Virus genome (UHGV): UHGV-1530050
DNA from: a virus
Strand: one strand, 5' to 3'
Length of the DNA stretch: 30,949 bases
The position numbers and the translations under genes were made by a program. A model generated the notes under the pieces. It saw only the letters and a program-made list of their open reading frames with translations. It was not told where the DNA came from and made no database searches. This document shows, piece after piece, positions 1 through 28,533 of the stretch; the first letter of the stretch is position 1, and every line of letters starts with the position of its first letter.

Positions 1-40
1 TAACGTATTCGCGCTACATCCAAAGCGTGTTATGAAACAA

Positions 41-70
41 GGGGTTAGCGAATTGCTAACCCCTTTTTCA
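41..70 (+). terminator. Rho-independent terminator-like hairpin, possibly bidirectional
   Basis: 9-bp stem GGGGTTAGC/GCTAACCCC with loop GAATT, followed by TTTTT on the + strand; an A-rich tract precedes it, so it may also work on the - strand. Confidence 0.5.
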
Positions 71-76
71 TTGGTG

Positions 77-122
77 GTGGCGGCAAATTGGCGGCAGAGA
101 TTGGCGCGATGGCGACAGATAT
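77..122. repeat. Three imperfect direct copies of a TGGCG(G/A)CA(R)A(K)AT motif; candidate att-region recombinase binding sites
   Basis: tggcggcaaat (77-88), tggcggcagagat (89-101), tggcgacagatat (110-122); similar copies occur at 30783..30806 in the int 3' end. Confidence 0.4.
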
Positions 123-144
123 AAAAAACCTGCCGAAGCAGGTT
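121..144 (-). terminator. Rho-independent terminator of the ogr/B-like gene
   Basis: On the - strand the stem AACCTGC/GCAGGTT with loop TTCG is followed by TTTTAT, starting at the ogr stop codon. Confidence 0.6.
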
Positions 145-362
145 CAAAGCCAAAGTTGCTGTTGTTGGTTTCTGATGGGGTGGGGCGGAGCAGGATCAAC
201 AGTGCCCGGTTTCACAATGAATCTTGATAGCGTCTCAAAAGTGATAAATGTACATCCGCAATTTATGTTCTGGCATTGGTGATAACGTTCTTTCGTTTCG
301 GTGCTAAGGTACCGGCTAGTACGAGCATGTGCGGCGTTTTGGCATAACGGGCAGTGCATCAT
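144..362 (-). CDS. ogr: Late gene transcriptional activator, Ogr/Delta (186 B) family zinc-finger protein
   Basis: 72 aa; C-P-L-C ... C-Q-N-I-N-C-G-C zinc-finger spacing and overall resemblance to P2 Ogr as I recall it; located after gene D as in P2/186. Confidence 0.85.
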   Translation of the reverse strand: MMHCPLCQNAAHARTSRYLSTETKERYHQCQNINCGCTFITFETLSRFIVKPGTVDPAPPHPIRNQQQQLWL

Positions 363-438
363 AATTTTTCCCCCTGCTGGCGCGTTTGAGGGAATAATAA
401 ACTCTAAAATTGCATTTGCAAGTTATGATTTGCTTTTT

Positions 439-1608
439 TTATATTTCGCTTTCCTCTGAGCTGTACTCTATATCAGATAGCTTAACCTCAAGCTCTAACC
501 CCGTCGTGAAGCCATTATTATTCAGAATGTGAGTTACTTTACTGATTAACCATACCTGTTCGTCTATTACACGCTTAAAGCCCGACACACGTACAGGCGT
601 CTCAGGAAATAAATCCGCTCGCCCTAGCGCCAGTGTGATTGAAAACTCCGCAACGCCTCGCTGCAGTTTATCCCACTTAGCCTGAGCGGCACGCATCGCC
701 TGCGCCTTTGATGCGTAGACCGTTGTCAGCGCCAGCACGTTATCGGCTTCACCGGCCATATACTCACCCTCGCGAGCCTCCTGCTCTTTTTTGGCCTTTG
801 TCTTTTTGCTGACAGGCTTTGCTTTCGGGTGCTCCAGTGCGCGTAGGTGTTTCTCTTTTGGCTGGCGTTTCAGCGTCACTTTTTGCTTTTGCGGCTTCGG
901 GTCTTTGGTGTGCAACCATTTTGCCGTTACGCCGGTATAAGCCCCACGGTCGGCAATAGCAAATTGATGACGGTCACCATTGCTACGGGTCAGCGTCATT
1001 TGCGGGATGGGTCTGCCGCTGGCCGTCATCGCACTACCGGCTTTCAGAAACAGCAATTTCCCCGCTTTCACTGACACCGCAGCTCCGTTTCGGTCAGCTA
1101 GCCGGGTCAGAAACACCGCGTCGGACTCCTGCGACTGGTCGATATGCGGTACCGGGATTTTTTTCAGTGAATCAGCGACACTGGCCGTCAGTTTATTGCG
1201 TTTTGCGATGGTGCTGACCAGTTCTCCGATGGTGGTGTCATGCCATGACTCTTCACGCCTGGAATTTAGCGTGCCGCGAAAGTCCGCGCTGCGCGCCCGG
1301 ATGGTCAGGGTGTCAGGCGCTCCCCGGTGCTCAATCTCATCGACCGTAAAATCCCCCTTATTCAGCAACGCCGAGCCCTGCCAGCCAAGCCACAGCGTCA
1401 GCACTGCCCCGCGCAGGGGTAACTCAACTTTCCCGTCGGTATCATCAAGCTCAATATCGAGCTGGTCAGCCTCAAAACCCCGGTTATCGGTCATGGTGAG
1501 AGAAATCAATCGGTCACTAAAATTGCTGGTAATGTCCTGGCTGTTCAGCGTCAACTTAAATGCCGGTGCAAGGCTGGCACCGGCGTCAATTGCCATCTCC
1601 GTTATCAT
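439..1608 (-). CDS. D: Tail protein D (late control gene D family)
   Basis: 389 aa; position downstream of U with ATGA start/stop coupling; P2 gpD-like sequence. Confidence 0.85.
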   Translation of the reverse strand: MITEMAIDAGASLAPAFKLTLNSQDITSNFSDRLISLTMTDNRGFEADQLDIELDDTDGKVELPLRGAVLTLWLGWQGSALLNKGDFTVDEIEHRGAPDTLTIRARSADFRGTLNSRREESWHDTTIGELVSTIAKRNKLTASVADSLKKIPVPHIDQSQESDAVFLTRLADRNGAAVSVKAGKLLFLKAGSAMTASGRPIPQMTLTRSNGDRHQFAIADRGAYTGVTAKWLHTKDPKPQKQKVTLKRQPKEKHLRALEHPKAKPVSKKTKAKKEQEAREGEYMAGEADNVLALTTVYASKAQAMRAAQAKWDKLQRGVAEFSITLALGRADLFPETPVRVSGFKRVIDEQVWLISKVTHILNNNGFTTGLELEVKLSDIEYSSEESEI

Positions 1609-2090
1609 GCAGTGAAACCTCCGGGCATACCCTGCAGTTTATCTGTCAAATTACCGGCAGAGCCGAGAAGCTCACTGGCCTGTTTATTCAGGTCACCAAA
1701 CATCTCTGTCAGCGATTCATCAACCCGTTTTAGCGAAAGCGTGAAATCAATCTTTCTGGCCGCACCATCACTGAAAAACTCGGTGCGTGTAGTCGATACT
1801 TTATCGACGATATACATCCCGAGGATATTTCCGGTTCCCTCTATCAACGGCCACGCTCTGCCTTCATTGGCCATCACCTCTACAGCCTTAAGTGAGATCC
1901 AACCGCCAGTGATAGCGGGGTATAGCGTACCAGCAAGCTGTATAGAGGTTTCCCCCTCGCCAAGAAACTGATAGGCAGGTGGTTTACCCACCCGGTCATT
2001 GGACACCCAGCGATAATCTTTCGAATGCTGCATCGACTGGTAAGGCAGGGTGCGAAGTTCAAACACAAACATTCCGAGAGCAAGCATCAT
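1605..2090 (-). CDS. U: Tail protein U
   Basis: 161 aa; sits between tape measure and D as in P2. Confidence 0.85.
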   Translation of the reverse strand: MMLALGMFVFELRTLPYQSMQHSKDYRWVSNDRVGKPPAYQFLGEGETSIQLAGTLYPAITGGWISLKAVEVMANEGRAWPLIEGTGNILGMYIVDKVSTTRTEFFSDGAARKIDFTLSLKRVDESLTEMFGDLNKQASELLGSAGNLTDKLQGMPGGFTA

Positions 2091-2103
2091 CGTTTAATCC
2101 CCC

Positions 2104-4548
2104 TCAATAGTCGTGGGTCATGTTGGCACGCTGGCGGGCGCGTTTATCGCGCTCAATCTGTTCGAGCGTGTCGCGTAGTTGTCTGTCAAGCTGATGCCCC
2201 GGCGCAACACCTCCCGGCAGATTGATGTTGTATTCGCTTTTGCTCTGGTCAATGTAAGAGCGCCCCGCCGGTGCGGTAACTGGCTGATAAGCCTGATAGC
2301 CGCCATATGTGCTGGTTGCCGGGATGTAGGAATTACCCTGTGTGGCGGCATTGGTTTTGGCGGCGGTCTGGTCGAGGCTGTCCGACTCTTTGTTGATGAT
2401 GCCTAGCTTTTCGAGAAGCCAGTCGACACCGCTGCGCAGCTTGTTAAAAACATTGAGCGGAGCCATCAAGGCAGAGGCCAGTGCCTGACCAAATATGACG
2501 CCGACACTTTTGCAGCTATCAAGCGTTTCCTGCGTGGCCTTAACCGGTGCTATCAGGTCTTTAAACCACTGCCAGACGCCGCGCAGTTTCTCGCCGAGGC
2601 CATCAAAAATGGGAGCCAGTGGAGCTAACATTTCCCCGACTGGGGCAAAGGCACTCATGATGCCCTCAATCACTCCCGAGAAAAATGCGCTGATGGGCTC
2701 CCAATATTTACGGATGAGTAGCGCCCCCGCCACAATCGCCGCACCGACGGCCACTATCGGCCAGGTAATCGCACCGAGCGCTGTCGCAATGGCACTACCG
2801 ACGACAGTAAAGACCGTACCCAGCACGCCAGCAGCGGCGATAATTGCATTAATCCCCATGACAACCGGCCACGCAACGAGACCAATGCCGCCGATGATAC
2901 CAATCAGTGCCAGCGCACCACCGGCGATGATGCCGATAGTTTCCGCTAACTCCTTGTTGTCTTTGATCCAGTCATCAAGCTTTAGCACATACCGTGTTGC
3001 TGTCTGAGTTAGCTGACGCAATGAGCTATCTTGCTGGTCATAGAGGTCAGTGCCGACCGCCTCATATGCTGACTGGAACTCCTTGAAGTCGCCGCCGAGG
3101 TTATCCTGCATAACCTTGACCAGCTCCTCTGTTTTACCGTCTGAATCCTTTATCGTGGCAGTTAGCTTATCGAGTTTTCCGCTTGCCGCTGCCGCCATAA
3201 GGACACTTGCAGACTTCATAGCCTCCTCGCCGAATATCGTTTTCACGTACTCGGCCTTTTGTGAGGTACCAAGATTGTTGCGTTTAAAACTGGCCTGCAT
3301 TTCTTTCAGGATGGTAAATAGCGGGCGCGTATTGCCTTTGCTGTCTGAGGTTTTAACTCCCAGCTCTTTGAGTGCATCGTATGCTTTGCCTGTGGGTGCC
3401 TGTAGTCTCGTGATAACAGCAGCGCCGCCAGTCCCAGCCATTGACCCCCTGATGTTATTATCATGAAGTGTGCCGGTAATCGCCGCCGCCTGTTCAAGAC
3501 TCACCCCAGCATTTTTCGCAACAGGGGCAAGGTAACTTAATGAGTCACTTAGTCCCTGAAAATCAGCGGTGGTTTTGTTCATCGTGGTTGAAAGAACATC
3601 ACCGATATGCGCAGCCGCGTCATTAGAAAGCTGAAAGGCGGCTTTTGTCCCCATCAACAGTTGCGCGTTTTCCTCCATTGTTTTTTTGTTTGCAAGCGAC
3701 AGGTTGAGAGTCACAGGTGTCATGGCCGCTATAGCCGCCGCATCACCACCACCTTTTGCAATGATAATCTGCGCACTGGCTGCATCATCAGCAGAAGCGG
3801 CTGTATTGTCACCGAGCTGGCGCGCCTGTTTGCGTAACGCCTGCATTTCTGGCGACTGCTTATCGACCCCGAGCACAGCCTGCAGCTCGGAGTTTTTTTG
3901 CGCAAAGTCATAACCGGGCATCAGCAATTTAACCCCGGCCATCGTTCCCGCTGTCGCAATACCGACCCCGGCAGCACCTGCAGCGGCCATGTTACCGGCA
4001 AGCTCCTTACCCGATTTATATCGCTCTTTCACTCGGTTTAGGTGCGCCTGCTGTGCGCTGACCTTCGCCAATGCTTCACGCTGCCGGTTGAGCTGCGCCG
4101 TCGTCTCGCTGATACGTGTTTTAAGCCCCCGCTCATCGTTTGCCAGATTGCGGGTATTGATACCGGCGGCACCCAGCTCGCGTTGCTGGCGTTTAACCGA
4201 CTCGGTGAGGCTGTTGTATTTAACCTGCAGCCCCTCGGCGGCACGTTTTGCGGATTCGAGCACCTGTGCCTGCGCTCGCGTCGGGCGCTCAGTATTTTTG
4301 AATTGCGTGGCAAGCGCTTCAGCCTCGCGCTTTGCCTTCTCCAGCGACTGGCCGGTTACGGCCAGTTGAGCGCTGGTTTTGCGAAAGCCGTCAATTTTTG
4401 CTGCCTGCCCGTTCAGGTCACGCAGCCCTTTTTGTGTGTCGCGAATATCTGCCGTCAGGGCTTTACTCGCAGTCTGAATGGATTTAAGCGGTCGGGTCGC
4501 CTGGTCGACCGCTTTCAGCAATACCTCAAGCCTCAGGTTATTACTCAT
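2104..4548 (-). CDS. T: Tail tape measure protein T
   Basis: 814 aa, Ala/Gly-rich coiled-coil N-terminal half and hydrophobic glycine-rich segment; follows E/E'. Confidence 0.9.
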   Translation of the reverse strand: MSNNLRLEVLLKAVDQATRPLKSIQTASKALTADIRDTQKGLRDLNGQAAKIDGFRKTSAQLAVTGQSLEKAKREAEALATQFKNTERPTRAQAQVLESAKRAAEGLQVKYNSLTESVKRQQRELGAAGINTRNLANDERGLKTRISETTAQLNRQREALAKVSAQQAHLNRVKERYKSGKELAGNMAAAGAAGVGIATAGTMAGVKLLMPGYDFAQKNSELQAVLGVDKQSPEMQALRKQARQLGDNTAASADDAASAQIIIAKGGGDAAAIAAMTPVTLNLSLANKKTMEENAQLLMGTKAAFQLSNDAAAHIGDVLSTTMNKTTADFQGLSDSLSYLAPVAKNAGVSLEQAAAITGTLHDNNIRGSMAGTGGAAVITRLQAPTGKAYDALKELGVKTSDSKGNTRPLFTILKEMQASFKRNNLGTSQKAEYVKTIFGEEAMKSASVLMAAAASGKLDKLTATIKDSDGKTEELVKVMQDNLGGDFKEFQSAYEAVGTDLYDQQDSSLRQLTQTATRYVLKLDDWIKDNKELAETIGIIAGGALALIGIIGGIGLVAWPVVMGINAIIAAAGVLGTVFTVVGSAIATALGAITWPIVAVGAAIVAGALLIRKYWEPISAFFSGVIEGIMSAFAPVGEMLAPLAPIFDGLGEKLRGVWQWFKDLIAPVKATQETLDSCKSVGVIFGQALASALMAPLNVFNKLRSGVDWLLEKLGIINKESDSLDQTAAKTNAATQGNSYIPATSTYGGYQAYQPVTAPAGRSYIDQSKSEYNINLPGGVAPGHQLDRQLRDTLEQIERDKRARQRANMTHDY

Positions 4549-4720
4549 TGTGGTTTCCGCTACGCTGCAGCGCCTTTTCGCGCCATGTGATGAGCTCGGT
4601 CAGGCTCAGGGAATAGAGCTCTGATGGCGGCCAGTGGAATATCACCGCGATATCCGCCATCAGGTCATCGGTCGACAGGTCGGGCGGGAAGTCTACTCCG
4701 CCGAAGCCGGTGACAAAAAA
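4541..4720 (-). CDS. E' extension of tail assembly chaperone (E+E' product made by -1 frameshift)
   Basis: The -1 frame after the slippery heptamer stays open to a TAA at 4543..4541 (traced manually), overlapping the T start; standard P2-family and tailed-phage chaperone arrangement. Confidence 0.7.
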   Translation of the reverse strand, partial: FFVTGFGGVDFPPDLSTDDLMADIAVIFHWPPSELYSLSLTELITWREKALQRSGNHNE

Positions 4721-5028
4721 CCAATCACCTTAGCGGCCAGCGACAGCATATCGGGCAGGTTCATCGCGGTTAGCTCCTGCGTGGTGAGCGCGGGATAGGT
4801 CATGCGGGGCAGCACTTTAATCAGCGCATCGACCTCGGACTGCGCCACCGCCGCCAGACTGACGCCGCGCAGGGTACCGGCGTTCGGCTCAATCAGGGTG
4901 ACTTTATCAATCGTCTGACCGGCGCGCTTAATCGGCTTGTCGAGGGTCACGACGTTCGGGTTTGCGGTGTCAATTTCATTGCCAACTGTATCAACAAATT
5001 CAGCGGGTTTACGTGGTGCTTTAGCCAT
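4693..5028 (-). CDS. E: Tail assembly chaperone E
   Basis: 111 aa ORF between FII and T containing the slippery site near its 3' end. Confidence 0.85.
   Translation of the reverse strand: MAKAPRKPAEFVDTVGNEIDTANPNVVTLDKPIKRAGQTIDKVTLIEPNAGTLRGVSLAAVAQSEVDALIKVLPRMTYPALTTQELTAMNLPDMLSLAAKVIGFLSPASAE
4714..4720 (-). other. Programmed -1 ribosomal frameshift slippery heptamer T_TTT_TTG
   Basis: - strand reads GGT TTT TTG in the E zero frame (Gly-Phe-Leu near the E C-terminus); X_XXY_YYZ motif as in P2 E/E' and dnaX. Confidence 0.75.
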
Positions 5029-5089
5029 GATTTTTACTCTGCTCTGAATGGGGTTAATAACCGGCCAGCAGTGCTGACCGGTCAGGGAA

Positions 5090-5608
5090 TTACAGCCCGA
5101 TTGCGCGGCGGTGCTGTTCCAGACGGTCGACGCCGTTCACCTTCTCGACCATGTTGACGGTGTCGATTTCGATGACGTCGCTACCATCAATCGTCAGGCG
5201 GTAATAGGTGCAAACGGTCGACAGTTTGGTCGAGGTGTTTTCACCCTGCTTATTTTCGCCGCCGTCGATTTCTTTATGACGGCCACGCATGACCACCTCG
5301 ACCGCGATGATTTCGCCGGTGTCGTCGCGCTGGTAGGATCCAGCAAAACGCAGCGGCACAGCGTCAGCACCCGGCGCGGCGTACTGCGCCCACAGAGCCA
5401 CATCAGGCAGGCCACCGACAGACCACTCGACGGTTAACGCATCATCGTCGAGACCGAGGTCAATCGCCGCCGCACCATTCATACCACCGCCGCGATAGTT
5501 TTCGAGCTTGCGGGTCAGCTTCGGCAGCGTCACGGATTCAACAACGCCCATGTAGCTCAGACCGTCGTTGAACATATTCAGATATTTGAGTTTGCGGGGT
5601 AGTGCCAT
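5090..5608 (-). CDS. FII: Tail tube protein FII
   Basis: 172 aa; immediately downstream of the sheath gene; P2 FII-like. Confidence 0.9.
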   Translation of the reverse strand: MALPRKLKYLNMFNDGLSYMGVVESVTLPKLTRKLENYRGGGMNGAAAIDLGLDDDALTVEWSVGGLPDVALWAQYAAPGADAVPLRFAGSYQRDDTGEIIAVEVVMRGRHKEIDGGENKQGENTSTKLSTVCTYYRLTIDGSDVIEIDTVNMVEKVNGVDRLEQHRRAIGL

Positions 5609-5623
5609 GTTATTTCAGGCTCC

Positions 5624-6811
5624 TTAGCTGTTGACCGATTCGGCCAGATTCACCAGATATTTATCGGTGATACGCTGGCGCAGGGTCAGGCTTTCCAGTG
5701 GTGGAACCGGCGTATAGTCGTAGTCGATATACAGTTTCCCGGCCTTGAGGGTTTCCTTATCGTTCGATTCCTCGTCGAACCAGCATTCACCGTCCACGAT
5801 GTAGCCATTTGATTTCAGCTCGCGGAATTTGGCATTAATGCCGTCGACAATGTCACGGATAAGCGATGCGGTGATGGGCTTATCGACCGCCCACATGTGC
5901 GCTTCGGCCATCGTGTCGGCCAGCACCTGCGCGGTGCGGGTGTAGTTCTCAAACAGGAAAAGCGGGTCATCCGAGCAGGTGCGGTTCCCCCAAAAACGGA
6001 AACCATCTTTACGCACCAGCGTCGTTACCCCGGCCTCGTTGAGCAGGTCGGCATCGGTGCCGGATGCCTGCAAATCCCAAAAGACTGACGCACTGATGCC
6101 GGTGACACCCTGCACGCCAACGTTAGACAGGGTTTTGTGCCAGCCGACGGTTTGGTCGATGTAGGCGCGCAGGCCGAGTGCGCGCGCGGTGGCGTAGGCC
6201 GTTGCGGTGGCGTTCGCGGTGGTGTCCCATGCAAGGAAATCAGGCCAGATGACCATCAGCTCGCGCTGACTGAAATTCTCGCGATAGGCCATCGCTTCGG
6301 AAATGGTCTTACAGCCCCATGCGCTGACATAGCCAAAGGCGCGCAGGCTAATACAGACCGACGCGAGCGCGGTTGCGACCTCCTGCGTATCGAGACCCGG
6401 CACGCCGAGAATGCGCGGCTTAACGCCGGTGACCGCTTCGGCAGTCAACAGCGCCTTGATACCGGTGTATTTACCGTTCTCATCCGTGCCGCCAATGATA
6501 TTAGAAATGGTCTGCGCCTGAGCTGCATCCGGGTCATCGTCGACCCCTTCGGCTACGCGCACGACAACGGTGACGGGTTTTGACTGGTCGGCGATAGCCT
6601 GCAGGGATGCAGCCAGCGTGCCTTTTTTACCGGCTTTCGCAATGGCGCTCTGCACATTGGTAATCAGTACCGGCTCATTGAGGGGGAATGTTTCGGCATC
6701 CGCATCGCTGGCCGTGCAGACCATGCCGACGATTGCGGTTGCTACAGTGGAAATGACGCGGGTGCCGTCGTTAATCTCAAGCACCTGTACGCCGTGGTGA
6801 AAATCACTCAT
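5624..6811 (-). CDS. FI: Contractile tail sheath protein FI
   Basis: 395 aa; P2 FI-like sequence and position. Confidence 0.9.
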   Translation of the reverse strand: MSDFHHGVQVLEINDGTRVISTVATAIVGMVCTASDADAETFPLNEPVLITNVQSAIAKAGKKGTLAASLQAIADQSKPVTVVVRVAEGVDDDPDAAQAQTISNIIGGTDENGKYTGIKALLTAEAVTGVKPRILGVPGLDTQEVATALASVCISLRAFGYVSAWGCKTISEAMAYRENFSQRELMVIWPDFLAWDTTANATATAYATARALGLRAYIDQTVGWHKTLSNVGVQGVTGISASVFWDLQASGTDADLLNEAGVTTLVRKDGFRFWGNRTCSDDPLFLFENYTRTAQVLADTMAEAHMWAVDKPITASLIRDIVDGINAKFRELKSNGYIVDGECWFDEESNDKETLKAGKLYIDYDYTPVPPLESLTLRQRITDKYLVNLAESVNS

Positions 6812-6911
6812 CCGGTTAACTCCGTGGTTAGTGGGCGAGTGTTATTGTCCTGGCTGGTCTGGTGAGGAGCTATTTGTCGGCGATGGGCAGGCGATGGCAC
6901 ATAAACAAATT

Positions 6912-6935
6912 AAAAAAAGACGGGCATCAGCCCGC
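6912..6935 (-). terminator. Rho-independent terminator downstream of tail fibre assembly gene G
   Basis: On the - strand the stem CGGGC/GCCCG with loop UGAU is followed by a U7 tract, 7 nt after the G stop codon. Confidence 0.6.
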
Positions 6936-6941
6936 CCTGCA

Positions 6942-7352
6942 TTACTCCGGTTTTACCGGCCACTCAATATCCGGTGCCGTTGAGGTGTCGACCGCGTTCA
7001 GCGTCTGAATGTATTTCATCCATGCAATGAGACTGGCCTTGTCATCGTCGCTGATGATGCCGAGCTGCAGCTCGGTCTGCCACAAGCTGATTGTATCTTT
7101 CGCCTCGTCAATCAGTGCTGCTTTTTGATTGTCTGCAAGCGAGATTAATTCCTCTTGTGTGAGAATCGGTTCGGGGGGCTCTATTGCAACCGGCAATCCG
7201 TTTTTATCATGCGATATAACGAGCCCCGCATCCTGTGCGCTCATCATTTCCGCATGCAGACTTACCGGAATCTCAAGCGTTCCCTCTGGCTGCTCAGGAA
7301 ACCATTGTTCAAGATAAAAACTGTCACTACTTGGATCAAACCATACTTTCAT
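6942..7352 (-). CDS. G: Tail fibre assembly protein (Tfa/gpG family)
   Basis: Conserved Tfa C-terminus (...LNAVDTSTAPDIEWPVKPE); start set at the internal ATG (MKVWFD...) that has a GGAG RBS and lies 1 nt after the H stop, rather than the longer ORF-track start at 7451. Confidence 0.8.
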   Translation of the reverse strand: MKVWFDPSSDSFYLEQWFPEQPEGTLEIPVSLHAEMMSAQDAGLVISHDKNGLPVAIEPPEPILTQEELISLADNQKAALIDEAKDTISLWQTELQLGIISDDDKASLIAWMKYIQTLNAVDTSTAPDIEWPVKPE

Positions 7353-7353
7353 T

Positions 7354-8376
7354 TCAGACTCCGATTGCAAGGTAGGTAGCATACGTCGCGCCATTGGTAA
7401 GCGGATTCGATAATGAGCGATAGTTCCAGCCAAACTTTGTACGCCCGTCACCCGACTGAGATGTTACAGAAACATAACCGGCATTTTGCGCAGCACCATC
7501 GCAACCACATGCAATAACAGCCAGAATTTTGTTAGGGAAAGCACTCGGCAAGGTACAAACACCCGTTATTGGGGTACCTGCTACTGACCCCGCAGGGTTG
7601 GTAAAATTCATGGCAAATGTCCCGATGACAGCCTTAAATCCATGAGGCAGGTCAAGCAGAGCATAACCATTTGCACTCGGGAAGTTATGTTCGAATTTAA
7701 ACGATGAAATGTCAGGTATTTGATTTGCGCCCTCACCAACGGCACGCGTTGCCGCATTACCAAGGCCTAAATTCTCAAACACCTTACCGATAATCCCAGC
7801 GTCAGCCATTTCTTTCAGTGCATTTGCTATCAGCGGGTACTGCTTATGCGGATTTGCAGCGTCAACATGCTTTTTCAACAGTTCATCAGCATAGGCTTTC
7901 ACCTCGATAACCTTATCGTCGACATACTGGCGCGTTGCCAGCACGACCGACGGGTCGATTTTCAGGGTAATAGCCGACGTACTCGACACGATAAGAATCA
8001 TGCGAATGGTCTGAGTGCGGCCGCTTCCCTCCTGCAGTTGTGGTTTGTAGGTTTCCGGGCAGTTCGCCACGGCAATAAGCACACCGGCATCATCATAGAG
8101 ACCAATCTCACGGATCCAGAAACCGCCCTCATTCTCGGGAATAATCTGTTCCGCGATAATCTGGCTGGTATTGGCCGGGTCAATGGTCAGCAGGTTCAGC
8201 GGCGCGATGCGCTTCTGGTTAATGAGCTTCGTCTGCGCCGGGTCAGGAGTCGGCAACGTACCATTCGCATCACCGACGGCCATCTGCGTCAGGTTGAGTT
8301 TGGTACCGAGTGCCGCCGCGTTCGCCAGCCGCGCCGCGCCCTGATTGGTCAGAATGGCAAAATATTTTGCGGTCAT
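7354..8376 (-). CDS. H: Tail fibre protein H (short variant)
   Basis: 340 aa; conserved P2 H-like N-terminal domain (...GGFWIREIGLYDDAGVLIAVAN...) with a divergent, lower-GC C-terminal receptor-binding part. Confidence 0.85.
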   Translation of the reverse strand: MTAKYFAILTNQGAARLANAAALGTKLNLTQMAVGDANGTLPTPDPAQTKLINQKRIAPLNLLTIDPANTSQIIAEQIIPENEGGFWIREIGLYDDAGVLIAVANCPETYKPQLQEGSGRTQTIRMILIVSSTSAITLKIDPSVVLATRQYVDDKVIEVKAYADELLKKHVDAANPHKQYPLIANALKEMADAGIIGKVFENLGLGNAATRAVGEGANQIPDISSFKFEHNFPSANGYALLDLPHGFKAVIGTFAMNFTNPAGSVAGTPITGVCTLPSAFPNKILAVIACGCDGAAQNAGYVSVTSQSGDGRTKFGWNYRSLSNPLTNGATYATYLAIGV

Positions 8377-8981
8377 GCGTTCACTCTCAGGTTATCAATC
8401 AAATGGATGGCCGAGGCCGGGTAATATTCACCGCCGACGACAATTTCCTCGGGGGTGTAGGGGTAAACGGTCAGCGCGTCGCCGTCGTAACATCCCGCGC
8501 CGACATACAGCTCGCCGGTTGCACTCAGGCTGATAGCCAGCCCCGTCAGGTGGCGACTTGCCGGTTTGGCGTCTTCAATCAGGCGCTCAAGCTCCTGATA
8601 CATTTCGTCAGTGATGCCACTGTCGAGCACACCGACAACGAGGCGAAATGTGCCTGGCTCCTCGTCGAGCTGCCACCACTCGCGCACCTCAATCAGAAAG
8701 CCGAGCGGCTCAACCACCCGACGCAATGCGCTGATGGTGCCTTTGTGCTGATGGACGAAAAAGGAGGATGCGCAGACGCTGCGCTTTGTCGCCTCCGGCC
8801 ACTTCTCATCCCACCTGTCAACCGACAGCGCCCACGCCAGATACGGCAGCAGGTTTACCGGGCAGGTGCGCCAGTTCCACAAAGTGCGCAGCGGTACCGG
8901 CACGCGCTGAATCTCAGAGAGCGCGGCAGCGGCGGCAACTTCCAGCGGCGACGAGCCAATGGGTAACAGCCGGTCACTCAT
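8373..8981 (-). CDS. I: Baseplate protein I
   Basis: 202 aa; overlaps J and H ends as in the P2 baseplate operon. Confidence 0.85.
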   Translation of the reverse strand: MSDRLLPIGSSPLEVAAAAALSEIQRVPVPLRTLWNWRTCPVNLLPYLAWALSVDRWDEKWPEATKRSVCASSFFVHQHKGTISALRRVVEPLGFLIEVREWWQLDEEPGTFRLVVGVLDSGITDEMYQELERLIEDAKPASRHLTGLAISLSATGELYVGAGCYDGDALTVYPYTPEEIVVGGEYYPASAIHLIDNLRVNA

Positions 8982-9882
8982 CCGAGCCCCCGATAGTTAT
9001 CTGGTACTCCGTGCAGTTCGACGCCTGCGACTTACTCAGCACAATGTCGGCCTGCGGTGATGCCAGCTCGACACGCTGAACCCCCTCAACATGCAGCGCC
9101 GCGTAAATGGCCGACAGACGGATATCACGCCCGAGGCGGTGCTGCGCGCTGATGTAGCTCTGCAGCTTCTGCTCTGATGCCTGCCTGATGGGCTCAGATT
9201 CGGGGCCGGGGTAAACGTAGAGCGTCGCGTCAATCTGGTACGGCACAATCTCGGCTGACTGGACAGTAACCCGGTCGGCCACCGGGCGCACATCCTCGGC
9301 ATTAAGCGCCTTTTCAACGATTGCCAGTAACTCAGGGCTGGCGGTGCCGTCATCCTCGCGAGATAGCACGGTAATCGTCACGCAGGCTGGCGACGGGCTT
9401 GCGACCGAAACATCAGCGACCCGCCCGTCGGCGCTGCGACCGTGATACTCATATGCGCCGACCGGCCCCGCCACGCTCAAGCCCTCAAACGCCTGTTGCG
9501 TGCGCAGACGCAGGTCGGTATCGGATTCCATAACGGCAGGTGTCGGCGGAATGGTGGTGTCATCCGCCGGGGTGATGGTCAGACGTTCGGTATTGTTGTT
9601 CCCTGCCACGACGTCGAGGTCGTTACCGGCGGAATAGGCCAGCGTCACCGCCTGCGCGGCTTCGTTCACCCGCTGACGCCAGATAACTTCACGGTAGGCG
9701 TTTTCCTGCAGCAGCTTAACAATCGGCTCTGACTCAAGCGCCAGTGTCCGGGCAATGGCCTCCTGCTGGTCTTCGGGATAGAGCGAAATCAGCGTCGCAA
9801 TGCGTTCCGCAAGGATAGTTTCATAGTCCAGTTCCTCAACCACATCGGGAACGGGTAACTGACTCAGGTCAACGGTTGCCAT
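8974..9882 (-). CDS. J: Baseplate assembly protein J
   Basis: 302 aa; P2 gpJ-like sequence and position. Confidence 0.9.
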   Translation of the reverse strand: MATVDLSQLPVPDVVEELDYETILAERIATLISLYPEDQQEAIARTLALESEPIVKLLQENAYREVIWRQRVNEAAQAVTLAYSAGNDLDVVAGNNNTERLTITPADDTTIPPTPAVMESDTDLRLRTQQAFEGLSVAGPVGAYEYHGRSADGRVADVSVASPSPACVTITVLSREDDGTASPELLAIVEKALNAEDVRPVADRVTVQSAEIVPYQIDATLYVYPGPESEPIRQASEQKLQSYISAQHRLGRDIRLSAIYAALHVEGVQRVELASPQADIVLSKSQASNCTEYQITIGGSDE

Positions 9883-9888
9883 AGTGAT

Positions 9889-10236
9889 TTAACTCAGTGA
9901 AACTGTGGTTGAAACTGACGCACCGGTATCGGTACGCATCCCGGTAATATCGACATACATTTCGCCAGCGTCGCCGGTCTCAAAGCTGATGGCGGTAAGC
10001 CTGATGCGCGGCTCCCACTTCTGGATAGCCGAATAGCACGCCACCATAATTTGTAGCCTGAGCGCCGGGTTTTGCGGCATATCAATCAGCGCCGACAGAA
10101 GCGAGCCATATTCACGGCGCATCACCCGCGAGCCGACCGGCGTCAGCAGTATGTCGCGCATGCTCTGGCTGATGTGCTCAGTGTCGCTGATGCCGAGGCC
10201 GGTATTTCGGTTCATACCCTGATAGCGCGCCGTCAT
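9889..10236 (-). CDS. W: Baseplate wedge protein W (gp25-like)
   Basis: 115 aa; located between V and J. Confidence 0.9.
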   Translation of the reverse strand: MTARYQGMNRNTGLGISDTEHISQSMRDILLTPVGSRVMRREYGSLLSALIDMPQNPALRLQIMVACYSAIQKWEPRIRLTAISFETGDAGEMYVDITGMRTDTGASVSTTVSLS

Positions 10237-10874
10237 TTAGTGCCCTCCGTCCAGCTCCCGCCCCGTTGCACGCCACCGTGACCGTGGTCATCAACCTGCA
10301 CACCGTTTGATTTCAACGTGCCGCCAGTATGTTCGATGTTTCCCCGCATGGTGCCGCCTTTCTGCACCTCAAGCGTCGCCGTCGTCAGTTTGTTGGTGCA
10401 GACCACCTCCGGGCTGTCGAGGGTGATGCGGGTTTCTGCTTTCACAAGCACCACCGGCACAGTGGCGGTGATGGACTCCGATGCCGTCACATCAGCAGTC
10501 TTAATGCCACTGACCGTCAGCGCACCGGTTTCCGGCTCATACTCCATAACCGCGCCATCAGGGAACACCACATGCCACGCATCCGCCGAGGCAGACGGGG
10601 CGGGGTTATCGTCTGAGAAAATCCCCGGCAGCACGAAAGCGGTATCAAGCTCGCCACCAATCGCCAGCAGCAGTACCTGCTCACCGACCGAGGGAGCCCA
10701 CCATGTACGCGAACGACCGGCGCGGGTAGTAAGCCAGTTCAGCCATGTAGTCTGGATCCCGCCGCTTTGTACGCGGCACAGCCCCTGCACGGTATCGACC
10801 TCAGTCACCACACCTGAGCGGATGAGATTGCGAATTGCACGAGCTAGTTCTTGAATGCTGTTTAGTGTGTTCAT
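10233..10874 (-). CDS. V: Baseplate spike/assembly protein V
   Basis: 213 aa; P2 gpV-like; first gene of the V-W-J-I-H-G operon. Confidence 0.9.
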   Translation of the reverse strand: MNTLNSIQELARAIRNLIRSGVVTEVDTVQGLCRVQSGGIQTTWLNWLTTRAGRSRTWWAPSVGEQVLLLAIGGELDTAFVLPGIFSDDNPAPSASADAWHVVFPDGAVMEYEPETGALTVSGIKTADVTASESITATVPVVLVKAETRITLDSPEVVCTNKLTTATLEVQKGGTMRGNIEHTGGTLKSNGVQVDDHGHGGVQRGGSWTEGTK

Positions 10875-11062
10875 GTAGCAAGAATGACGCAGTTAAAGCT
10901 ATGGGGCTACCGAGGGAAAATTGTTCAGCAATGGGACAACAAACATCGAGGTCTAGACCTTAAAAAAACAGCCTTGTTCTAGATCGCCCTTCCAATTACA
11001 CTTGATTTAATCTCGACAGAGATGGAATTCTAAATGGCTAGCTTATAATTCAGGATTGAAAA

Positions 11063-11926
11063 ATGGAAGAATCTAAAAGAATACGCCAATTAAAAGAAAA
11101 CCTCATAAAGGAACTACCTTTCTTTCCAAATGAAAAATCAATACGCACTGAACTAGAAAATCAAAGTTTAAATGGGGTTTTAATCGCTTACCTCCACTGG
11201 AAAACAAGAATTGTGCCGACCCGCAGAAGGAGAGTTCATATATATCCAGAGGTAACGAGCGATAAAAGATGGAAAGAACTAAAACTTGGTATTCATGGGT
11301 TACTGGATAAGGTCAGAAAAGGTGAAGACTTATACCCTCATCTTTCATTGCGCGCACATAAGTATGGCTACACTCCTGTTGAAAGAATTCGTAATGGAGA
11401 TGCTGATTCATGGGAAGACAAAGATCAGTTATTAAATACGAAAGGTTTTCATCATTTTCATTTGAGCATGAATATTCAAAGTACAGGCTTGGCCGAAAGG
11501 ACAAATAATGTTCTTTTTGCCTTCGTTTCTCGCGACCAGTTTCGTGCTGTGGGGATATTTGATCATAGTGTATTTGATAAACCCGATAGTTTAAATGGCA
11601 TGACTGAGGAACGTGAAAGAATGTGGACCCTGCATGAAAAATACATCACATTCGGAATGAAAGCTGGCACAGTGTATATAAACAATCTGATAACAGCATC
11701 CGGGCATCCTGTAAATCTTATCATGCTCGCCGATCGTTATGCTGCAATCATCCGAGAATATGACCAGAAGGCGGAAGACAGAATTTTTGTAAATGAGCTT
11801 TATGCTCAAAGCCCACTTCCCTCTCCAGAAAGGTTTAAATTTGAGTGGCGCATAGAGGGTTTGGATCTTGTTCTTTTTGATAAAAAAAACAGAGTGGCCT
11901 TTAACGTCTACAAAGCTCACATTTAA
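11063..11926 (+). CDS. Hypothetical protein; AT-rich cargo gene in the S-V (P2 orf30) slot, antisense to the late genes
   Basis: 287 aa ORF with AGGA RBS 7 nt upstream; markedly lower GC than the flanking S and V genes; no motif I recognise. Confidence 0.6.
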   Translation: MEESKRIRQLKENLIKELPFFPNEKSIRTELENQSLNGVLIAYLHWKTRIVPTRRRRVHIYPEVTSDKRWKELKLGIHGLLDKVRKGEDLYPHLSLRAHKYGYTPVERIRNGDADSWEDKDQLLNTKGFHHFHLSMNIQSTGLAERTNNVLFAFVSRDQFRAVGIFDHSVFDKPDSLNGMTEERERMWTLHEKYITFGMKAGTVYINNLITASGHPVNLIMLADRYAAIIREYDQKAEDRIFVNELYAQSPLPSPERFKFEWRIEGLDLVLFDKKNRVAFNVYKAHI

Positions 11927-17921: not shown

Positions 17922-19691
17922 ATGACCATTTCCACCGATACAACCTTGTTGCATGACCCGCGACGACAGGCATCGCTGCTTTACTGGCAGGGCTTTTCCG
18001 TGCCACAGATTGCCGAAATGCTGCAGGTCAAGCGCCCGACCGTGCAGAGCTGGAAGCAGCGCGACGGCTGGGACGGCATCGCACCGATTTCCCGCGTTGA
18101 AAGCAGCCTTGAGGCGCGCCTGATTCAGCTCATCGCGAAACCACAGAAGACGGGCGGTGATTTCAAAGAGATTGACCTGCTCGGGCGGCAGATTGAGCGG
18201 CTGGCGCGCGTCAACCGCTACAGCCAGACCGGCAACGAAGCCGACCTTAACCCCAACGTCGCCAACCGCAACAAAGGGGAGCGCAAAAAGCCGAAAAAGA
18301 ATTTTTTCAGCGACGAGGCTATCGAGAAACTGGAGGAATTATTTTTCGACCAGTCTTTCGAGTACCAGTTGCAGTGGTACCGCGCAGGACTGGAGCACCG
18401 TATTCGTGACATTCTCAAATCCCGCCAGATTGGTGCGACGTTCTATTTCTCCCGCGAGGCGCTGCTGCGCGTGCTCAAAACAGGCCATAACCAGATATTT
18501 TTATCAGCCAGTAAAACGCAGGCTTACGTGTTTCGCGAATACATCATCCAGTTTGCACGACTGGTCGACGTTGACTTGACCGGCGACCCGATTGTCATCG
18601 GTAACAACGGCGCAAAACTGATTTTTCTCGGTACCAATTCCAACACCGCGCAGAGCCATAACGGCGACCTGTATGTCGATGAAATATTCTGGATCCCGAA
18701 CTTTCAGAAACTGCGCAAAGTCGCCTCGGGCATGGCTTCGCAGAAGCACCTGCGCTCGACCTACTTTTCGACACCCTCAACACTGGCGCACGGGGCTTAC
18801 CCCTTCTGGTCTGGTGAGCTGTTCAACAAGGGGCGCGCCAGTGCCGCTGACCGCATCGAAATCGACATCAGTCACCGCGCGCTCGCCGGTGGTCAGCTCT
18901 GCGACGATGGCCAGTGGCGGCAGATTGTCACCATTGAGGATGCCCTTGCCGGGGGCTGCACCCTGTTCGACCTCGACCAGCTCAAACGCGAAAACAGTGA
19001 TGAGGATTTTAAGAACCTGTTTATGTGCGAGTTTGTCGACGATAAAGCGTCGGTATTCCCGTTCGAGGAGCTGCAGCGCTGCATGGTCGACGTGATGGAA
19101 GAATGGGAGGACTTTGCCCCGTTCGCCGACCATCCGTTCGGCTCGCGCCCGGTCTGGATTGGCTACGACCCGTCACACACCGGCGACAGCGCCGGGTGCG
19201 TTGTGCTCGCGCCGCCGGTGGTCTCGGGTGGCAAGTTCCGCATGCTTGAGCGCCACCAGTGGAAAGGAATGGATTTTGCCGCTCAGGCCGAGGGCATCCG
19301 CAAGCTGACCGAGAAATACAACGTCGAATACATCGGCATTGACGCGACCGGCCTCGGTCTCGGCGTATTCCAGTTGGTGCGCTCATTCTACCCGGCGGCA
19401 CGCGGCATCCGTTACACACCTGAAATGAAAACCGCGATGGTACTCAAGGCGAAAGACACCATTCGCCGCGGCTGTCTGGAGTACGACGCCGGGGCGACCG
19501 ACGTCACGCAGTCGTTTATGTCCATCCGCAAAACCATGACCAGCAGCGGGCGCAGCGCCACTTACGAGGCCAGCCGCACCGAGGAAGCCAGTCACGCTGA
19601 TATCGCATGGGCGACCATGCACGCCCTGTTAAACGAACCGCTTTCTGCCGGTAGCGGCATGCAGCCTAAATCTATTCTGGAGTTCAACTAA
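17922..19691 (+). CDS. P: Terminase ATPase (large) subunit P
   Basis: 589 aa; P2 gpP-like; TAATG overlap with Q. Confidence 0.9.
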   Translation: MTISTDTTLLHDPRRQASLLYWQGFSVPQIAEMLQVKRPTVQSWKQRDGWDGIAPISRVESSLEARLIQLIAKPQKTGGDFKEIDLLGRQIERLARVNRYSQTGNEADLNPNVANRNKGERKKPKKNFFSDEAIEKLEELFFDQSFEYQLQWYRAGLEHRIRDILKSRQIGATFYFSREALLRVLKTGHNQIFLSASKTQAYVFREYIIQFARLVDVDLTGDPIVIGNNGAKLIFLGTNSNTAQSHNGDLYVDEIFWIPNFQKLRKVASGMASQKHLRSTYFSTPSTLAHGAYPFWSGELFNKGRASAADRIEIDISHRALAGGQLCDDGQWRQIVTIEDALAGGCTLFDLDQLKRENSDEDFKNLFMCEFVDDKASVFPFEELQRCMVDVMEEWEDFAPFADHPFGSRPVWIGYDPSHTGDSAGCVVLAPPVVSGGKFRMLERHQWKGMDFAAQAEGIRKLTEKYNVEYIGIDATGLGLGVFQLVRSFYPAARGIRYTPEMKTAMVLKAKDTIRRGCLEYDAGATDVTQSFMSIRKTMTSSGRSATYEASRTEEASHADIAWATMHALLNEPLSAGSGMQPKSILEFN

Positions 19692-20737
19692 TGGGTAAGC
19701 AAAAATCCCGCAAAGCCGCTGCGCAGAAGGCCAGCAAGCCACAACAACTGACCGCCAGCGCACCGCCAAAAACAACAGCTTTTACCTTCGGCGAGCCGGT
19801 GCCAGTGCTCGATAAGCGCGATATTCTGGATTACGTCGAGTGCATCAGTAACGGCAAATGGTACGAGCCGCCGGTCAGCTTCTCCGGGCTGGCAAAGAGC
19901 CTGCGCTCTGCAGTGCATCACAGCTCACCGATTTACGTTAAACGCAACGTGCTCGCTAGCACCTACATTCCGCACCCGCTGCTGTCCCGTCAGGATTTCA
20001 GCCGCTTTGCGCTCGACTATCTGGTATTTGGCAACGCCTTTCTTGAGCAGCGCCACAGCGTCACCGGCCAGTTAATCAAACTGCTGGCCTCGCCAGCCAA
20101 ATACACCCGACGCGGAGTCGACGATTCGATTTTCTGGTTTGTGGAAAACTTCACCCAGCCGCACGAGTTCGCGCCTGATACCGTGTTTCACCTGCTGGAG
20201 CCCGACATTAATCAGGAGATTTACGGCCTGCCCGAATATCTCAGCGCGCTAAATTCCGCCTGGCTGAATGAATCCGCGACGCTGTTCCGCCGCAAGTATT
20301 ATCAGAACGGCGCGCACGCGGGTTACATCATGTATGTGACTGACCCGGCGCAGAGCGCGACCGACGTCGAATCGCTGCGCGAGGCGATGCGCAACTCAAA
20401 AGGGCTCGGCAACTTTAAGAACCTGTTTTTCTACGCTCCCGGCGGAAAACCGGACGGCATCAAAATCGTGCCACTGAGCGAGGTCGCCACAAAGGATGAC
20501 TTTTTCAACATCAAGAAGGCCAGTGCCGCCGATCTGATGGACGCGCACCGCGTACCGTTCCAGCTCATGGGCGGCAAGCCCGAGAATATCGGTTCACTCG
20601 GTGATGTTGAGAAGGTGGCAAAGGTATTTGTGCGCAACGAGCTGTCGCCGCTACAGGACAGGTTCAGGGAGGTAAATGACTGGCTCGGCATGGAGGTCAT
20701 CAGATTCAAAGAGTACACCCTCGACAACCCAGAATAA
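19691..20737 (+). CDS. Q: Portal (capsid vertex) protein Q
   Basis: 348 aa; P2 gpQ-like sequence and position. Confidence 0.9.
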   Translation: MGKQKSRKAAAQKASKPQQLTASAPPKTTAFTFGEPVPVLDKRDILDYVECISNGKWYEPPVSFSGLAKSLRSAVHHSSPIYVKRNVLASTYIPHPLLSRQDFSRFALDYLVFGNAFLEQRHSVTGQLIKLLASPAKYTRRGVDDSIFWFVENFTQPHEFAPDTVFHLLEPDINQEIYGLPEYLSALNSAWLNESATLFRRKYYQNGAHAGYIMYVTDPAQSATDVESLREAMRNSKGLGNFKNLFFYAPGGKPDGIKIVPLSEVATKDDFFNIKKASAADLMDAHRVPFQLMGGKPENIGSLGDVEKVAKVFVRNELSPLQDRFREVNDWLGMEVIRFKEYTLDNPE

Positions 20738-20814
20738 CTTAGGCCGCCACAATCTCTGCGCTCATTATTGAAGATGCAATCTGCGAAAGCTATAGTGCAT
20801 CGAATATCAAAACA

Positions 20815-21819
20815 ATGGGCGCGGAGATTAATATTTTGGAAACTGATTTTAAAATAACCCTCGAAGGTTTCGCTACTGAGCAAGAAGCAAATAATATCGG
20901 TAATTTCACACTAGAAGCTATCCGAGCTTTAACAAAAAATCTCAATCTTGATATCTCCAAATTAAAATGCGTGATTGTTTCCTATAACTTCAGTGAAGCT
21001 CTTCAAAAGGTAACATCCTCTTACCAACACAAATCCCCTAGTTCATTTACCAATAGCAAACAGGGCGCAGCCGTCGGGCAGTTAGTAACAAAAATTGGCA
21101 ATGATGGGCTATGTGAAGAATATACCCTTGTGCTATCGATTGATTTTTTTGTTGAGCTTTTCAATGATGCTGGCTTCTTAAAACTGAAAGAAGAAGGATA
21201 CCTCGCAGTCATCCATCGCATTCACCATGAATTAGTGCACGTACATGAAAAAAACTTACTAACATGCTTAGCCCAAAACTTTACAGTCAACGAGTATGGT
21301 AGCGCGCTTCTTATCTCAGCCACGCGTGCATGGTCTGAATATCTCGCTAATTACATGTCTTCGGGGTCTGCCCCTCAAGAAACTATCGATTTATTTTTAG
21401 AGAATCTTGACACTGTTGTAAATGAAGTATCTGACGAAATTGAAAAACTCATCTGGGGTTATAAGTACGGTAATATTTCTCTGAATGACATGTATCTCGA
21501 AGTAAAAAAACGTATCAGGCTAATCATCAACTCTTATGCTTATGCGATGGGTTATGTCCATTCTCTAAACATCAATATTAAAGAATACGATCCAAAGCTA
21601 TCCCTTACACTATCCAACTCAAAGATAAGATATCAATTATCAGAATTAGGCATTGCTTTTCAGAATCTTTATGGGAAGTTTAATGACCAGCACATTACAG
21701 GTTTTGGTGATTTTCGGGAGATAACAATAATCATTGATGAAATATTCAAGCAGTTTGGGCTTGTTTTAGAGTGTCCCGATTGGTCTGGCGACGGTGAACT
21801 CTACATACATGTAAATTAG
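20815..21819 (+). CDS. Hypothetical protein with HExxH (HELVH) motif; AT-rich cargo gene between portal Q and cos
   Basis: 334 aa ORF with much lower GC than the backbone; ...VIHRIHHELVHVHEKN... contains a candidate zinc-metallopeptidase HExxH motif; RBS weak. Confidence 0.55.
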   Translation: MGAEINILETDFKITLEGFATEQEANNIGNFTLEAIRALTKNLNLDISKLKCVIVSYNFSEALQKVTSSYQHKSPSSFTNSKQGAAVGQLVTKIGNDGLCEEYTLVLSIDFFVELFNDAGFLKLKEEGYLAVIHRIHHELVHVHEKNLLTCLAQNFTVNEYGSALLISATRAWSEYLANYMSSGSAPQETIDLFLENLDTVVNEVSDEIEKLIWGYKYGNISLNDMYLEVKKRIRLIINSYAYAMGYVHSLNINIKEYDPKLSLTLSNSKIRYQLSELGIAFQNLYGKFNDQHITGFGDFREITIIIDEIFKQFGLVLECPDWSGDGELYIHVN

Positions 21820-22038
21820 TTTAATCATAGTAGAAACATAATTAGCAGTTTGAATCCTGCCACTCCTGTAAAGCCGCTGCTCCTGGTGGCTTTTCCATGC
21901 ACACCACCATCACGCATCAGATGTGTCTCACGCGCACGAACACACCTGACCACCAACGAACCAGCAGCGACCACGACAGCGCCATCACGATGCGCTCAGA
22001 AGATAATTTTTATTATTACGCATCACTGCTGGCGCGCA

Positions 22039-22057
22039 ATGCTTTCCCCGCCACGCC
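22039..22057 (-). other. cos site (19-nt cohesive end, 186-type)
   Basis: The reverse complement of 22039..22057 reads GGCGTGGCGGGGAAAGCAT, matching the 19-nt cohesive end of phage 186 as I recall it (P2 differs at 2 positions); lies between Q and A as expected. Confidence 0.6.
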
Positions 22058-22150
22058 TGCCCGCTTTATGGGGCGGTTTTAATGCAGTTGCATGACCACT
22101 CTGGATCCCCGCCAGCTCTTGCGGCGCACGTACAAAACGGGTAACCCCGG

Positions 22151-22185
22151 CGCATGCAGAACCATGCACCTGTTGCATGCACAGC
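22151..22185. repeat. Three direct copies of CATGCA(C/G) spaced 11-13 bp apart
   Basis: cgCATGCAgaacCATGCAcctgttgCATGCAcag; about 95-130 bp from cos and 110-140 bp upstream of the 22294 gene. Confidence 0.4.
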
Positions 22186-22293
22186 TTATTTATTGATAAA
22201 TCACCTTAAATTTACAAAAATTACGGACATTGGTTCTTTCCAAACATGATAGCCTCTCGATAATTATCGAGCCTATTTTGAACGGAGAAAGAT

Positions 22294-23235: not shown

Positions 23236-23268
23236 TGCTAACGCCTCGCGGTGCTCGTTGTTCAACCC

Positions 23269-23303
23269 CCGCCAGTACTGAAAGCGAGTTTCAGAACCGG
23301 CGG
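23269..23303 (+). terminator. Candidate terminator hairpin downstream of the 22294 gene
   Basis: Nested inverted repeats ccgcc ... ctgaaa-gcgag-tttcag ... ggcgg, 35 nt after the stop, followed by cgtttgct. Confidence 0.3.
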
Positions 23304-23309
23304 CGTTTG

Positions 23310-23519
23310 CTATCGTCGACGTGGTGGTGGTGCGTATTGTTTCGACCTGCTGATGCTATCCAGCTTGCCGTAATTATCCCTGACTATTTCGGCACACCCG
23401 ACCAGCTCTGCGGGTGTCAAATTCTCATTGACCATTATCTGCTGCAAACGATGAACGATGGCCATCAGTTTGATGCTTTTAGTTTTGTGCTGCGGTATTT
23501 CACCTGGTAGTCGATGCAT
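23310..23519 (-). CDS. Small hypothetical ORF (69 aa)
   Basis: ORF only; uncertain start; located downstream of the dinI-like gene. Confidence 0.3.
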   Translation of the reverse strand: MHRLPGEIPQHKTKSIKLMAIVHRLQQIMVNENLTPAELVGCAEIVRDNYGKLDSISRSKQYAPPPRRR

Positions 23520-23718
23520 ATTATCACCCTCAATGAATTTTAATCAGTGCCGTCAAAACGCCACTATAAAACCATCTCAGGTCATGCCTCATTAATCATG
23601 GGCGTGTCATCAATAGCACATTGAGAAATTTTGAAAGGCAGGACTTAAGCCTCGTGGGCTAGTTACTCAACCCCGCCGACGCAAAAAGCTAGTTTTTGCG
23701 CCAGCACGGTTATTATGT

Positions 23719-23949: not shown

Positions 23950-23952
23950 AAT

Positions 23953-28504: not shown

Positions 28505-28533
28505 CACCCATAAAATTATCTGTAGGGGTTTTT

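Follow-up and report, generated by a model that had tools for sequence, protein, structure and literature searches.

The integrase of phage lambda is bivalent and bridges arm and core sites with the aid of bending proteins. In lambda attP, five arm sites (P1, P2, P'1-P'3) are split 2+3 across the core. Among P2-like phages and prophages, arm repeats were described in every one analysed but one, with tgccGCCActt as the 186-type and tgTGGaCa as the P2-type consensus (Nilsson et al. 2011, PMC3448106). For phage 186, RefSeq (NC_001317) lists 'predicted' Int arm-type sites with the consensus YAYCGCCAYTY, three to the left of attP and two to the right, together with IHF footprints that flank the core on both sides and five Apl sites on the int side. 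The annotation of P2 in RefSeq (NC_001895) puts an Int arm site (24470-24496) within the final codons of int, whose CDS end is given as 24462. The 186-type layout of arm sites is already known for the P2/186-like family and is a textbook component of attP. For the PsP3 branch of this family, our literature search found no experimental study of att; it returned only the insertion 'yfiN-rplS', given for the PsP3-like prophage phiSPU2 of Salmonella Pullorum in Table 1 of PMC6449608.

Here we analyse the TGGCGRCA repeats near both ends of the virus genome UHGV-1530050, a stretch of 30,949 nucleotides read 5' to 3' on one strand (the window).

Results

A PsP3-like prophage between rplS and yfiB

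Both ends of the window aligned with Salmonella phage PsP3 on the minus strand at 89% nucleotide identity (window 4-2500 with PsP3 19202-21699, and window 28500-30911 with PsP3 21701-24112). In PsP3 virion DNA, window position 30911 is joined almost directly to position 4. ON470592 (vB_EcoM-613R3) aligns collinearly with the whole prophage (99% identity to the window) and has E. coli genes on either side, in the order ...trmD, rplS / ogr ... int / yfiB, dgcN. Because of this collinearity with E. coli genes on both sides, the window is an integrated PsP3-like prophage (Eganvirus, 186-type P2-like) that occupies the rplS-yfiB interval of E. coli. The window ends at the prophage junctions and is not, as the original prediction had offered as an alternative, a circular genome cut at attP. 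The left edge lies just after the rplS stop codon and the right edge 55 bp into host DNA. Pfam identified Ogr at 144-362 on the minus strand and a tyrosine integrase at 29764-30813, as well as a CI repressor of the 186 type and a DUF2511 protein. The genes that matter for the analysis are the following:

144-362, minus strand: ogr/pag late-gene activator (Pfam Ogr_Delta)
28041-28412, minus strand: 123-aa protein in the Cox/Apl position, without Pfam match
29764-30813, plus strand: int, tyrosine integrase of 349 aa (Pfam Int_N and Phage_integrase)

Note that the GenBank 'phage' record ON470592.1 (L002 in our set) contains E. coli chromosome at 1-11404 (11.4 kb, smpB to rplS) and yfiB-dgcN at 43298-44992; the phage boundaries of this record are mis-set.

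The att core lies in the last rplS codons

We rebuilt the empty site by joining the rplS 3' end to the right flank of the window, at ...cgtcttaac/taagatttcgc...yfiB. The resulting 632 bp matched E. coli chromosomes at 100% identity, and the site was uninterrupted in 5339 of the 5426 complete genomes. When window 30600-30949 was used as the query, prophage-free E. coli genomes matched query positions 296-350 only, corresponding to window 30895-30949. Window 1-350 was found in only 66/5426 genomes, always at full length, and was absent from 5360; it is therefore not host flank. Since empty sites match only from 30895 on and window 1-350 is rare, the prophage breakpoints map to GAGCGTCTTAACT and not to the repeats:

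30895-30907, plus strand: att core identity block GAGCGTCTTAACT, in the last rplS codons (from the empty-site and junction comparisons)
30895-30949: host DNA, from the core to the right window end

The core consists of the rplS codons for E, R, L and N plus the first base of the stop codon, and its second copy directly precedes window base 1. The rplS-side junction reads rplS...aaaGAGCGTCTTAACTgaTAAcgtattcgcg and the yfiB-side junction ...aataGGAGCGTCTTAACTaagatttcgcttaagcg...yfiB, both in ON470592 and in E. coli TK3888, whose chromosome is complete. The attP of PsP3 reads ...gtagGAGCGTCTTAACTAAGAgcgtattcacg. After the core, the attP deduced for the window continues with AACTGATAACG, whereas PsP3 has AACTAAGAGCG, and the block of identity with rplS is consequently 13 bp long here and 17 bp in PsP3.

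About 87 of the 5426 complete genomes lacked an uninterrupted rplS-yfiB site, compared with the 66 that carried this ogr-side arm and 48 that contained most of window 30600-30949 (int 3' end, att core and right flank). Thus, other elements, or relatives with other int modules, also occupy rplS-yfiB.

The spacers and terminators around the core are:

30814-30894: AT-rich spacer between the int-proximal arm sites and the core (27% GC, compared with 52% overall)
39-65, plus strand: intrinsic terminator, phage-borne, between the core and the ogr-proximal arm sites (-23.1 kcal/mol, z -6.6)
126-145, minus strand: ogr terminator, at which the attP region ends

Among relatives, the stem of the terminator at 39-65 has undergone a compensatory change from A-U to G-C. 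As this phage terminator comes just after the core, integration replaces the rplS terminator. The host rplS terminator remains past the right junction, from about 30939, and is completed outside the window. At the rplS junction, the TAA stop codon becomes TGA, followed by an in-frame TAA. A scan of the whole window against Rfam matched no family, and hence no known RNA explains the region.

Five TGGCGRCA copies on the two arms of attP

The pattern CAAWWTGGCGGCAGAGRTTG matched without mismatch at 84-103 and at 30789-30808, against a chance expectation of 0.01 when up to 3 mismatches are allowed. Direct comparison confirmed that the two 20-mers are identical at 17/20 positions, 11 of them contiguous (TGGCGGCAGAG), as originally reported. 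TGGCGRCA was found 11 times in the window, compared with 3.24 +/- 1.83 expected, and 0/100 shuffles reached 11. Five copies are on the plus strand in two tight clusters (78, 89 and 110 on the left; 30783 and 30794 on the right). The further 'degenerate copies' that had been noted at 77-88, 110-122 and 30783-30793 correspond to members of these clusters. Six more copies of TGGCGGCA occur elsewhere in the window. The clustered copies are:

78-85, plus strand: predicted ogr-proximal arm-type Int site 1, TGGCGGCA; invariant in PsP3, SEN1, SW9, Midge and RCIP0057
89-96, plus strand: predicted ogr-proximal arm-type Int site 2, TGGCGGCA; offset by 11 bp from site 1
110-117, plus strand: predicted ogr-proximal arm-type Int site 3, TGGCGACA; conserved, with R as A or G among relatives
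30783-30790, plus strand: predicted int-proximal arm-type Int site 1, TGGCGACA; within the final codons of int, unchanged across six phage genomes
30794-30801, plus strand: predicted int-proximal arm-type Int site 2, TGGCGGCA; 11 bp after int-proximal site 1

The copies are direct repeats, 2 + 3 in number, in a single orientation and with neighbours 11 bp apart. PsP3, SEN1, SW9, Midge and RCIP0057 share this 2+3 plan, the spacings being 11, about 193, 11 and 21 bp; the counterpart of 89-96 in Midge and RCIP0057 is TGGCGACG. Because the six phage attP regions compared are 82-90% identical along their whole length, conservation within this set is weak evidence by itself. At the position of a look-alike at 102-109 (TGGCGCGA), relatives have TTGCTGCGA, TTGCCGCGA or TTTACTTGA, and E. 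coli TK3888 has TTGGAGCGA. As its sequence is not conserved, the look-alike is probably not an Int site.

With respect to the core, the int-side copies start 112 and 101 bp upstream (overall start range 94-112 bp) and the ogr-side copies about 80-112 bp downstream; overall, the repeats are about 95-125 bp away from the core on both sides. Since the two window ends are contiguous in PsP3 virion DNA, both clusters belong to one attP. The repeats are situated inside attP, apart from the core and on both sides of it, the arrangement found for arm sites.

The repeats also carry the family consensus. The reverse complement of tgccGCCActt is aagTGGCggca, which matches TGGCGGCA exactly at 3 sites; TGGCGACA is one base off. 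TGGCGR also agrees with the 186 RefSeq consensus, but the base that follows is C in the window and T in 186. Read in the int sense, the int side of 186 has TGGCGATA, TGGCGGTA and TGGCGAAT and the B side TGGCGATA and TGGCGGTG, spaced 11-12 bp.

The repeat motif co-varies with the Int N-terminus

Int shares 51% identity with 186 Int and 38% with P2 Int. Residues 1-45 are presumed to form the arm-binding N-domain. The N-terminus aligns with those of 186 and P2 Int and has W, E and Y at three 186-type discriminator positions. Nilsson et al. 2011 (PMC3448106) had proposed these three positions (W11, E14 and Y16 in the window Int) as discriminators. A model of the N-domain (pLDDT about 78 for residues 1-40) has the order strand-strand-strand-helix; fold searches with this moderate-confidence model gave no significant structural match.

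From bacterial genomes and viral contigs we gathered 160 loci encoding Int homologues, with identities between 96% and 50%. Most of them have a tandem pair spaced 11 bp at, or just past, the int 3' end, and the sequence of the pair varies between Int lineages. Pairs were classed by their first five bases and integrases by the residues aligned to W11, E14 and Y16:

W-E-Y: TGGCG, 57/57
W-Q-F: TGGCA, 10/10
(W/Y)-D-R: TGTCC, 6/6
W-D-Y: TGACT, 2/2
W-D-L: TGACA, 1

Among the recognised arm classes, 0/76 classified pairs (160 loci plus reference phages) fell off the diagonal, these counts not being phylogenetically independent. The W-Q-F and D-R classes each occur both in integrases 74-83% identical to the window Int and in integrases at most 52% identical to it.

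Several observations bear on whether the repeats are constrained as DNA or as protein. Being 11 bp apart, the two int-side copies are in different reading frames (GTT GGC GAC AAT and ATG GCG GCA GAG). At three loci (L052, L060 and L068) the tandem pair lies past the int stop codon. The last 13 Int residues (SLYVGDNMAAEVA, window 30775-30813) are without counterpart in 186 or P2 Int; the alignments of both to the window Int end at ..LNPL, and the tail is encoded by arm-site DNA. The ogr-side copies are non-coding. On these four grounds, the constraint on the repeats acts on the DNA and not on the protein. The 13-residue tail of Int may exist only because the sites overlap the gene.

Candidate accessory sites in the spacers

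One-mismatch matches to the IHF consensus were found in the attP region at 35-47, 30844-30856 and 30864-30876, the latter two on the minus strand. Note that across the window the consensus matched 28 times compared with 23.6 expected, which is not above chance, and these matches are therefore hints only. The int-side spacer contains a 20-bp tandem repeat (30844-30863 and 30864-30883, 80% identical) with an IHF-like match in each unit, as well as a pair of CACTGCA words 10 bp apart at 30814 and 30824. By analogy with the annotation of 186, the CACTGCA pair and the tandem repeat may be candidate excisionase or IHF sites. Two overlapping copies of CACTRCA (28439 and 28444; region 28439-28450) are present on the other strand in the early-promoter switch region. 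An excisionase operator of CACTGCA/CACTRCA type common to attP and the switch region is a lead only, the counts being not above chance. The PsP3 Cox/Apl analogue was described as a singleton, unrelated to other Cox/Apl proteins (Nilsson et al. 2011, PMC3448106), and for the protein in the position of 28041-28412, the Midge annotation notes an HHpred resemblance to a DNA-binding protein of Mesorhizobium R7A.

What the repeats are

The TGGCGRCA repeats are very probably arm-type binding sites of the prophage's heterobivalent tyrosine integrase. We base this identification on the 186 RefSeq annotation, on the consensus of Nilsson et al. and on the int-proximal layout of P2. The comparisons show where the junctions lie, that both clusters come from the phage, that their layout agrees with the 186 type and that the motif changes together with the N-terminal residues of Int.

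The original prediction had taken the repeats for the att core, the crossover sequence common to phage and host that is duplicated at the prophage ends, and had let it overlap the end of int. In favour of this, the repeats are direct, lie close to the two ends of the ogr-to-int block and agree at 17/20 positions, and P2-type integrases are known to tolerate imperfect cores. Comparison with an uninterrupted attB had been named as a check. That comparison refutes this interpretation, to which we attach next to no probability. The breakpoints of the empty site do not coincide with the repeat: the rplS-yfiB site lacks TGGCGGCAGAG and matches the window only over 30895-30949. Nor do the repeats mark the prophage/host boundary, because PsP3 virions carry the DNA outside them (4-83 and 30809-30911) as one uninterrupted phage sequence and window 1-350 is missing from all but 66 of the E. 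coli genomes, whereas another block, of 13 bp, is the one common to phage and rplS. The core is at 30895-30907, and both repeat clusters are phage DNA. The second proposal of the original prediction, that the repeats bind Int and flank an AT-rich core, is right in its essentials: the probable Int arm repeats do flank the core, but AT-richness is limited to the int-side spacer and the core itself is not AT-rich.

That the repeats are sites for the excisionase (the Cox/Apl analogue, 28041-28412) or for a regulator such as CI, and not for Int, is very unlikely, even though recombination directionality factors do bind direct repeats in attP about one helical turn apart (PMC7498355). In P2-like phages, such factors use their attP motif in the early-promoter switch region as well, yet TGGCGRCA is absent from 28412-28534; annotated Cox/Apl sites are restricted to the int side of the core, whereas the repeats occupy both arms. 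An excisionase operator would be expected between the early promoters and on one side of the core, a distribution that the repeats do not show. Furthermore, the motif co-varies with the Int N-terminus, and it matches the 186-type arm consensus although the Cox/Apl analogue of PsP3 is an unrelated singleton. It is also extremely improbable that the similarity is incidental, arising on the right as a by-product of the Int C-terminal amino acids and on the left from chance G+C-rich words near ogr. The right-hand copies are indeed in coding sequence and TGGCGGCA recurs six times elsewhere, but clustering and shared strand are far above shuffle expectation, the two coding copies use different frames while the left copies are non-coding, and the arrangement recurs in distant relatives with another motif. 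Arm-type Int sites remain the reading that we adopt.

rplS as a shared target

The rplS 3'-end core (AGCGTCT[T/G]AACTAA) was located 64-107 bp after int in 39/160 Int-homologue loci from many enterobacterial genera (loci scanned, L009-L168; examples L014, L021, L031, L104, L106, L110 and L144). The rplS-targeting integrases carry five arm classes, each with its own triple:

W-E-Y: TGGCG
W-D-R: TGTCC
W-D-Y: TGTCCACA and TGACTACC
W-Q-F: TGGCAGCA
W-D-L: TGACAACA

For this reason, arm specificity appears to be shuffled independently of core specificity. For a change of both arms in concert, the comparison covered P2, 186 and the PsP3 group. In three of the 160 loci int, core and ogr were contiguous, and all three have mismatched arm classes:

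L087: 2125-2730
L110: 2440-3050
L131: 1350-1960

L110, for example, has TGTCCACA/TGACCACG on the int side and TGGCGGCA twice on the ogr side, around the rplS core. Such mismatches speak against the arm-site reading, but the three loci are probably tandem lysogens of two different phages at one attB.

Discussion

From the lambda/P2/186 paradigm we infer that Int binds the repeats and that IHF and excisionase sites accompany them, and a working model can be outlined on this basis. The attP spans the last int codons to the ogr terminator, in the order arm sites at 30783 and 30794, 80-bp AT-rich spacer, 13-bp core, terminator and arm sites at 78, 89 and 110. The small N-terminal domain of Int would bind the five TGGCGRCA arm elements, while the core-binding and catalytic domains of those protomers would bind the core at the rplS end. 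IHF would bend the int-side and ogr-side spacers, bringing arms and core together; for excision, the phage excisionase (PsP3-type singleton, 28041-28412) would add bending. Strand exchange would take place within GAGCGTCTTAACT. Integration splits attP and leaves the three-site arm beside rplS and the two-site arm beside yfiB. Because of this split, each prophage end carries one arm cluster, mimicking terminal direct repeats.

Terminal direct repeats of a prophage are thus not always the att core, and split arm sites of P2/186-like elements can imitate one. Taking the arm repeats for the core puts both prophage boundaries off by about 100 bp, and here the misplaced boundary would credit a phage-borne terminator to the host. 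With the boundary correctly placed, the phage is seen to enter the last rplS codons, rebuild the gene end and supply a new terminator.

A broader reading, which we put forward tentatively and consider rather doubtful, combines the shared target with the arm classes. According to this reading, the rplS end is shared by P2-like phages of the same core specificity, which use at least five arm classes as orthogonal 'addresses' governed by a residue code. If true, the mismatched junctions of L087, L110 and L131 would be tandem lysogens, arm classes might keep prophages that share one attB from rearranging or excising one another, and the residues E/Q/D and Y/F/R would amount to a simple, engineerable recognition code for arm-site bases 3-5. 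The shuffling of arms among rplS-targeting phages could be of modest use for the design of orthogonal integrase systems.

Among the closest counterparts of the window prophage are the PsP3/phiSPU2-like prophages, which share its attP sequence plan and insertion locus; the PsP3-like phiSPU2 resides in Salmonella Pullorum, the window copy in E. coli. Lambda resembles it in the 2+3 split of five arm sites across the core. However, the lambda motif is unrelated, its Int is not closely related, and its Xis sites are on the int-distal arm.

P2 (NC_001895) also has two direct repeats 11 bp apart on each arm, with the int-proximal pair in the last int codons, and its attP has a like order of ogr terminator, arm, IHF site, core, Cox sites, arm and int. 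The P and P' arm sites of P2 were footprinted. P2 has 2+2 arm sites compared with 2+3 here, of motif class TGTCCACA (int sense) and with Y-D-R in the N-domain instead of W-E-Y. Its core differs from that of the window and is not within a gene end.

Phage 186 (NC_001317) belongs to the same genus, Eganvirus, and its Int N-terminus is near-identical. Three arm sites are annotated on its ogr/B side and two on its int side, like the 3+2 predicted here; its TGGCG repeats have a like orientation and lie roughly 100-135 bp from the crossover, and it too has a terminator between the core and the ogr-side arm. The two differ in the core (tRNA-Ile 3' end in 186, rplS 3' end in the window prophage), in the motif (TGGCGRTR compared with TGGCGRCA) and in the excisionase (Apl compared with the PsP3 singleton protein). 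In addition, an extra gene, orf69, separates int from attP in 186, and the arm sites of that phage are therefore not inside int.
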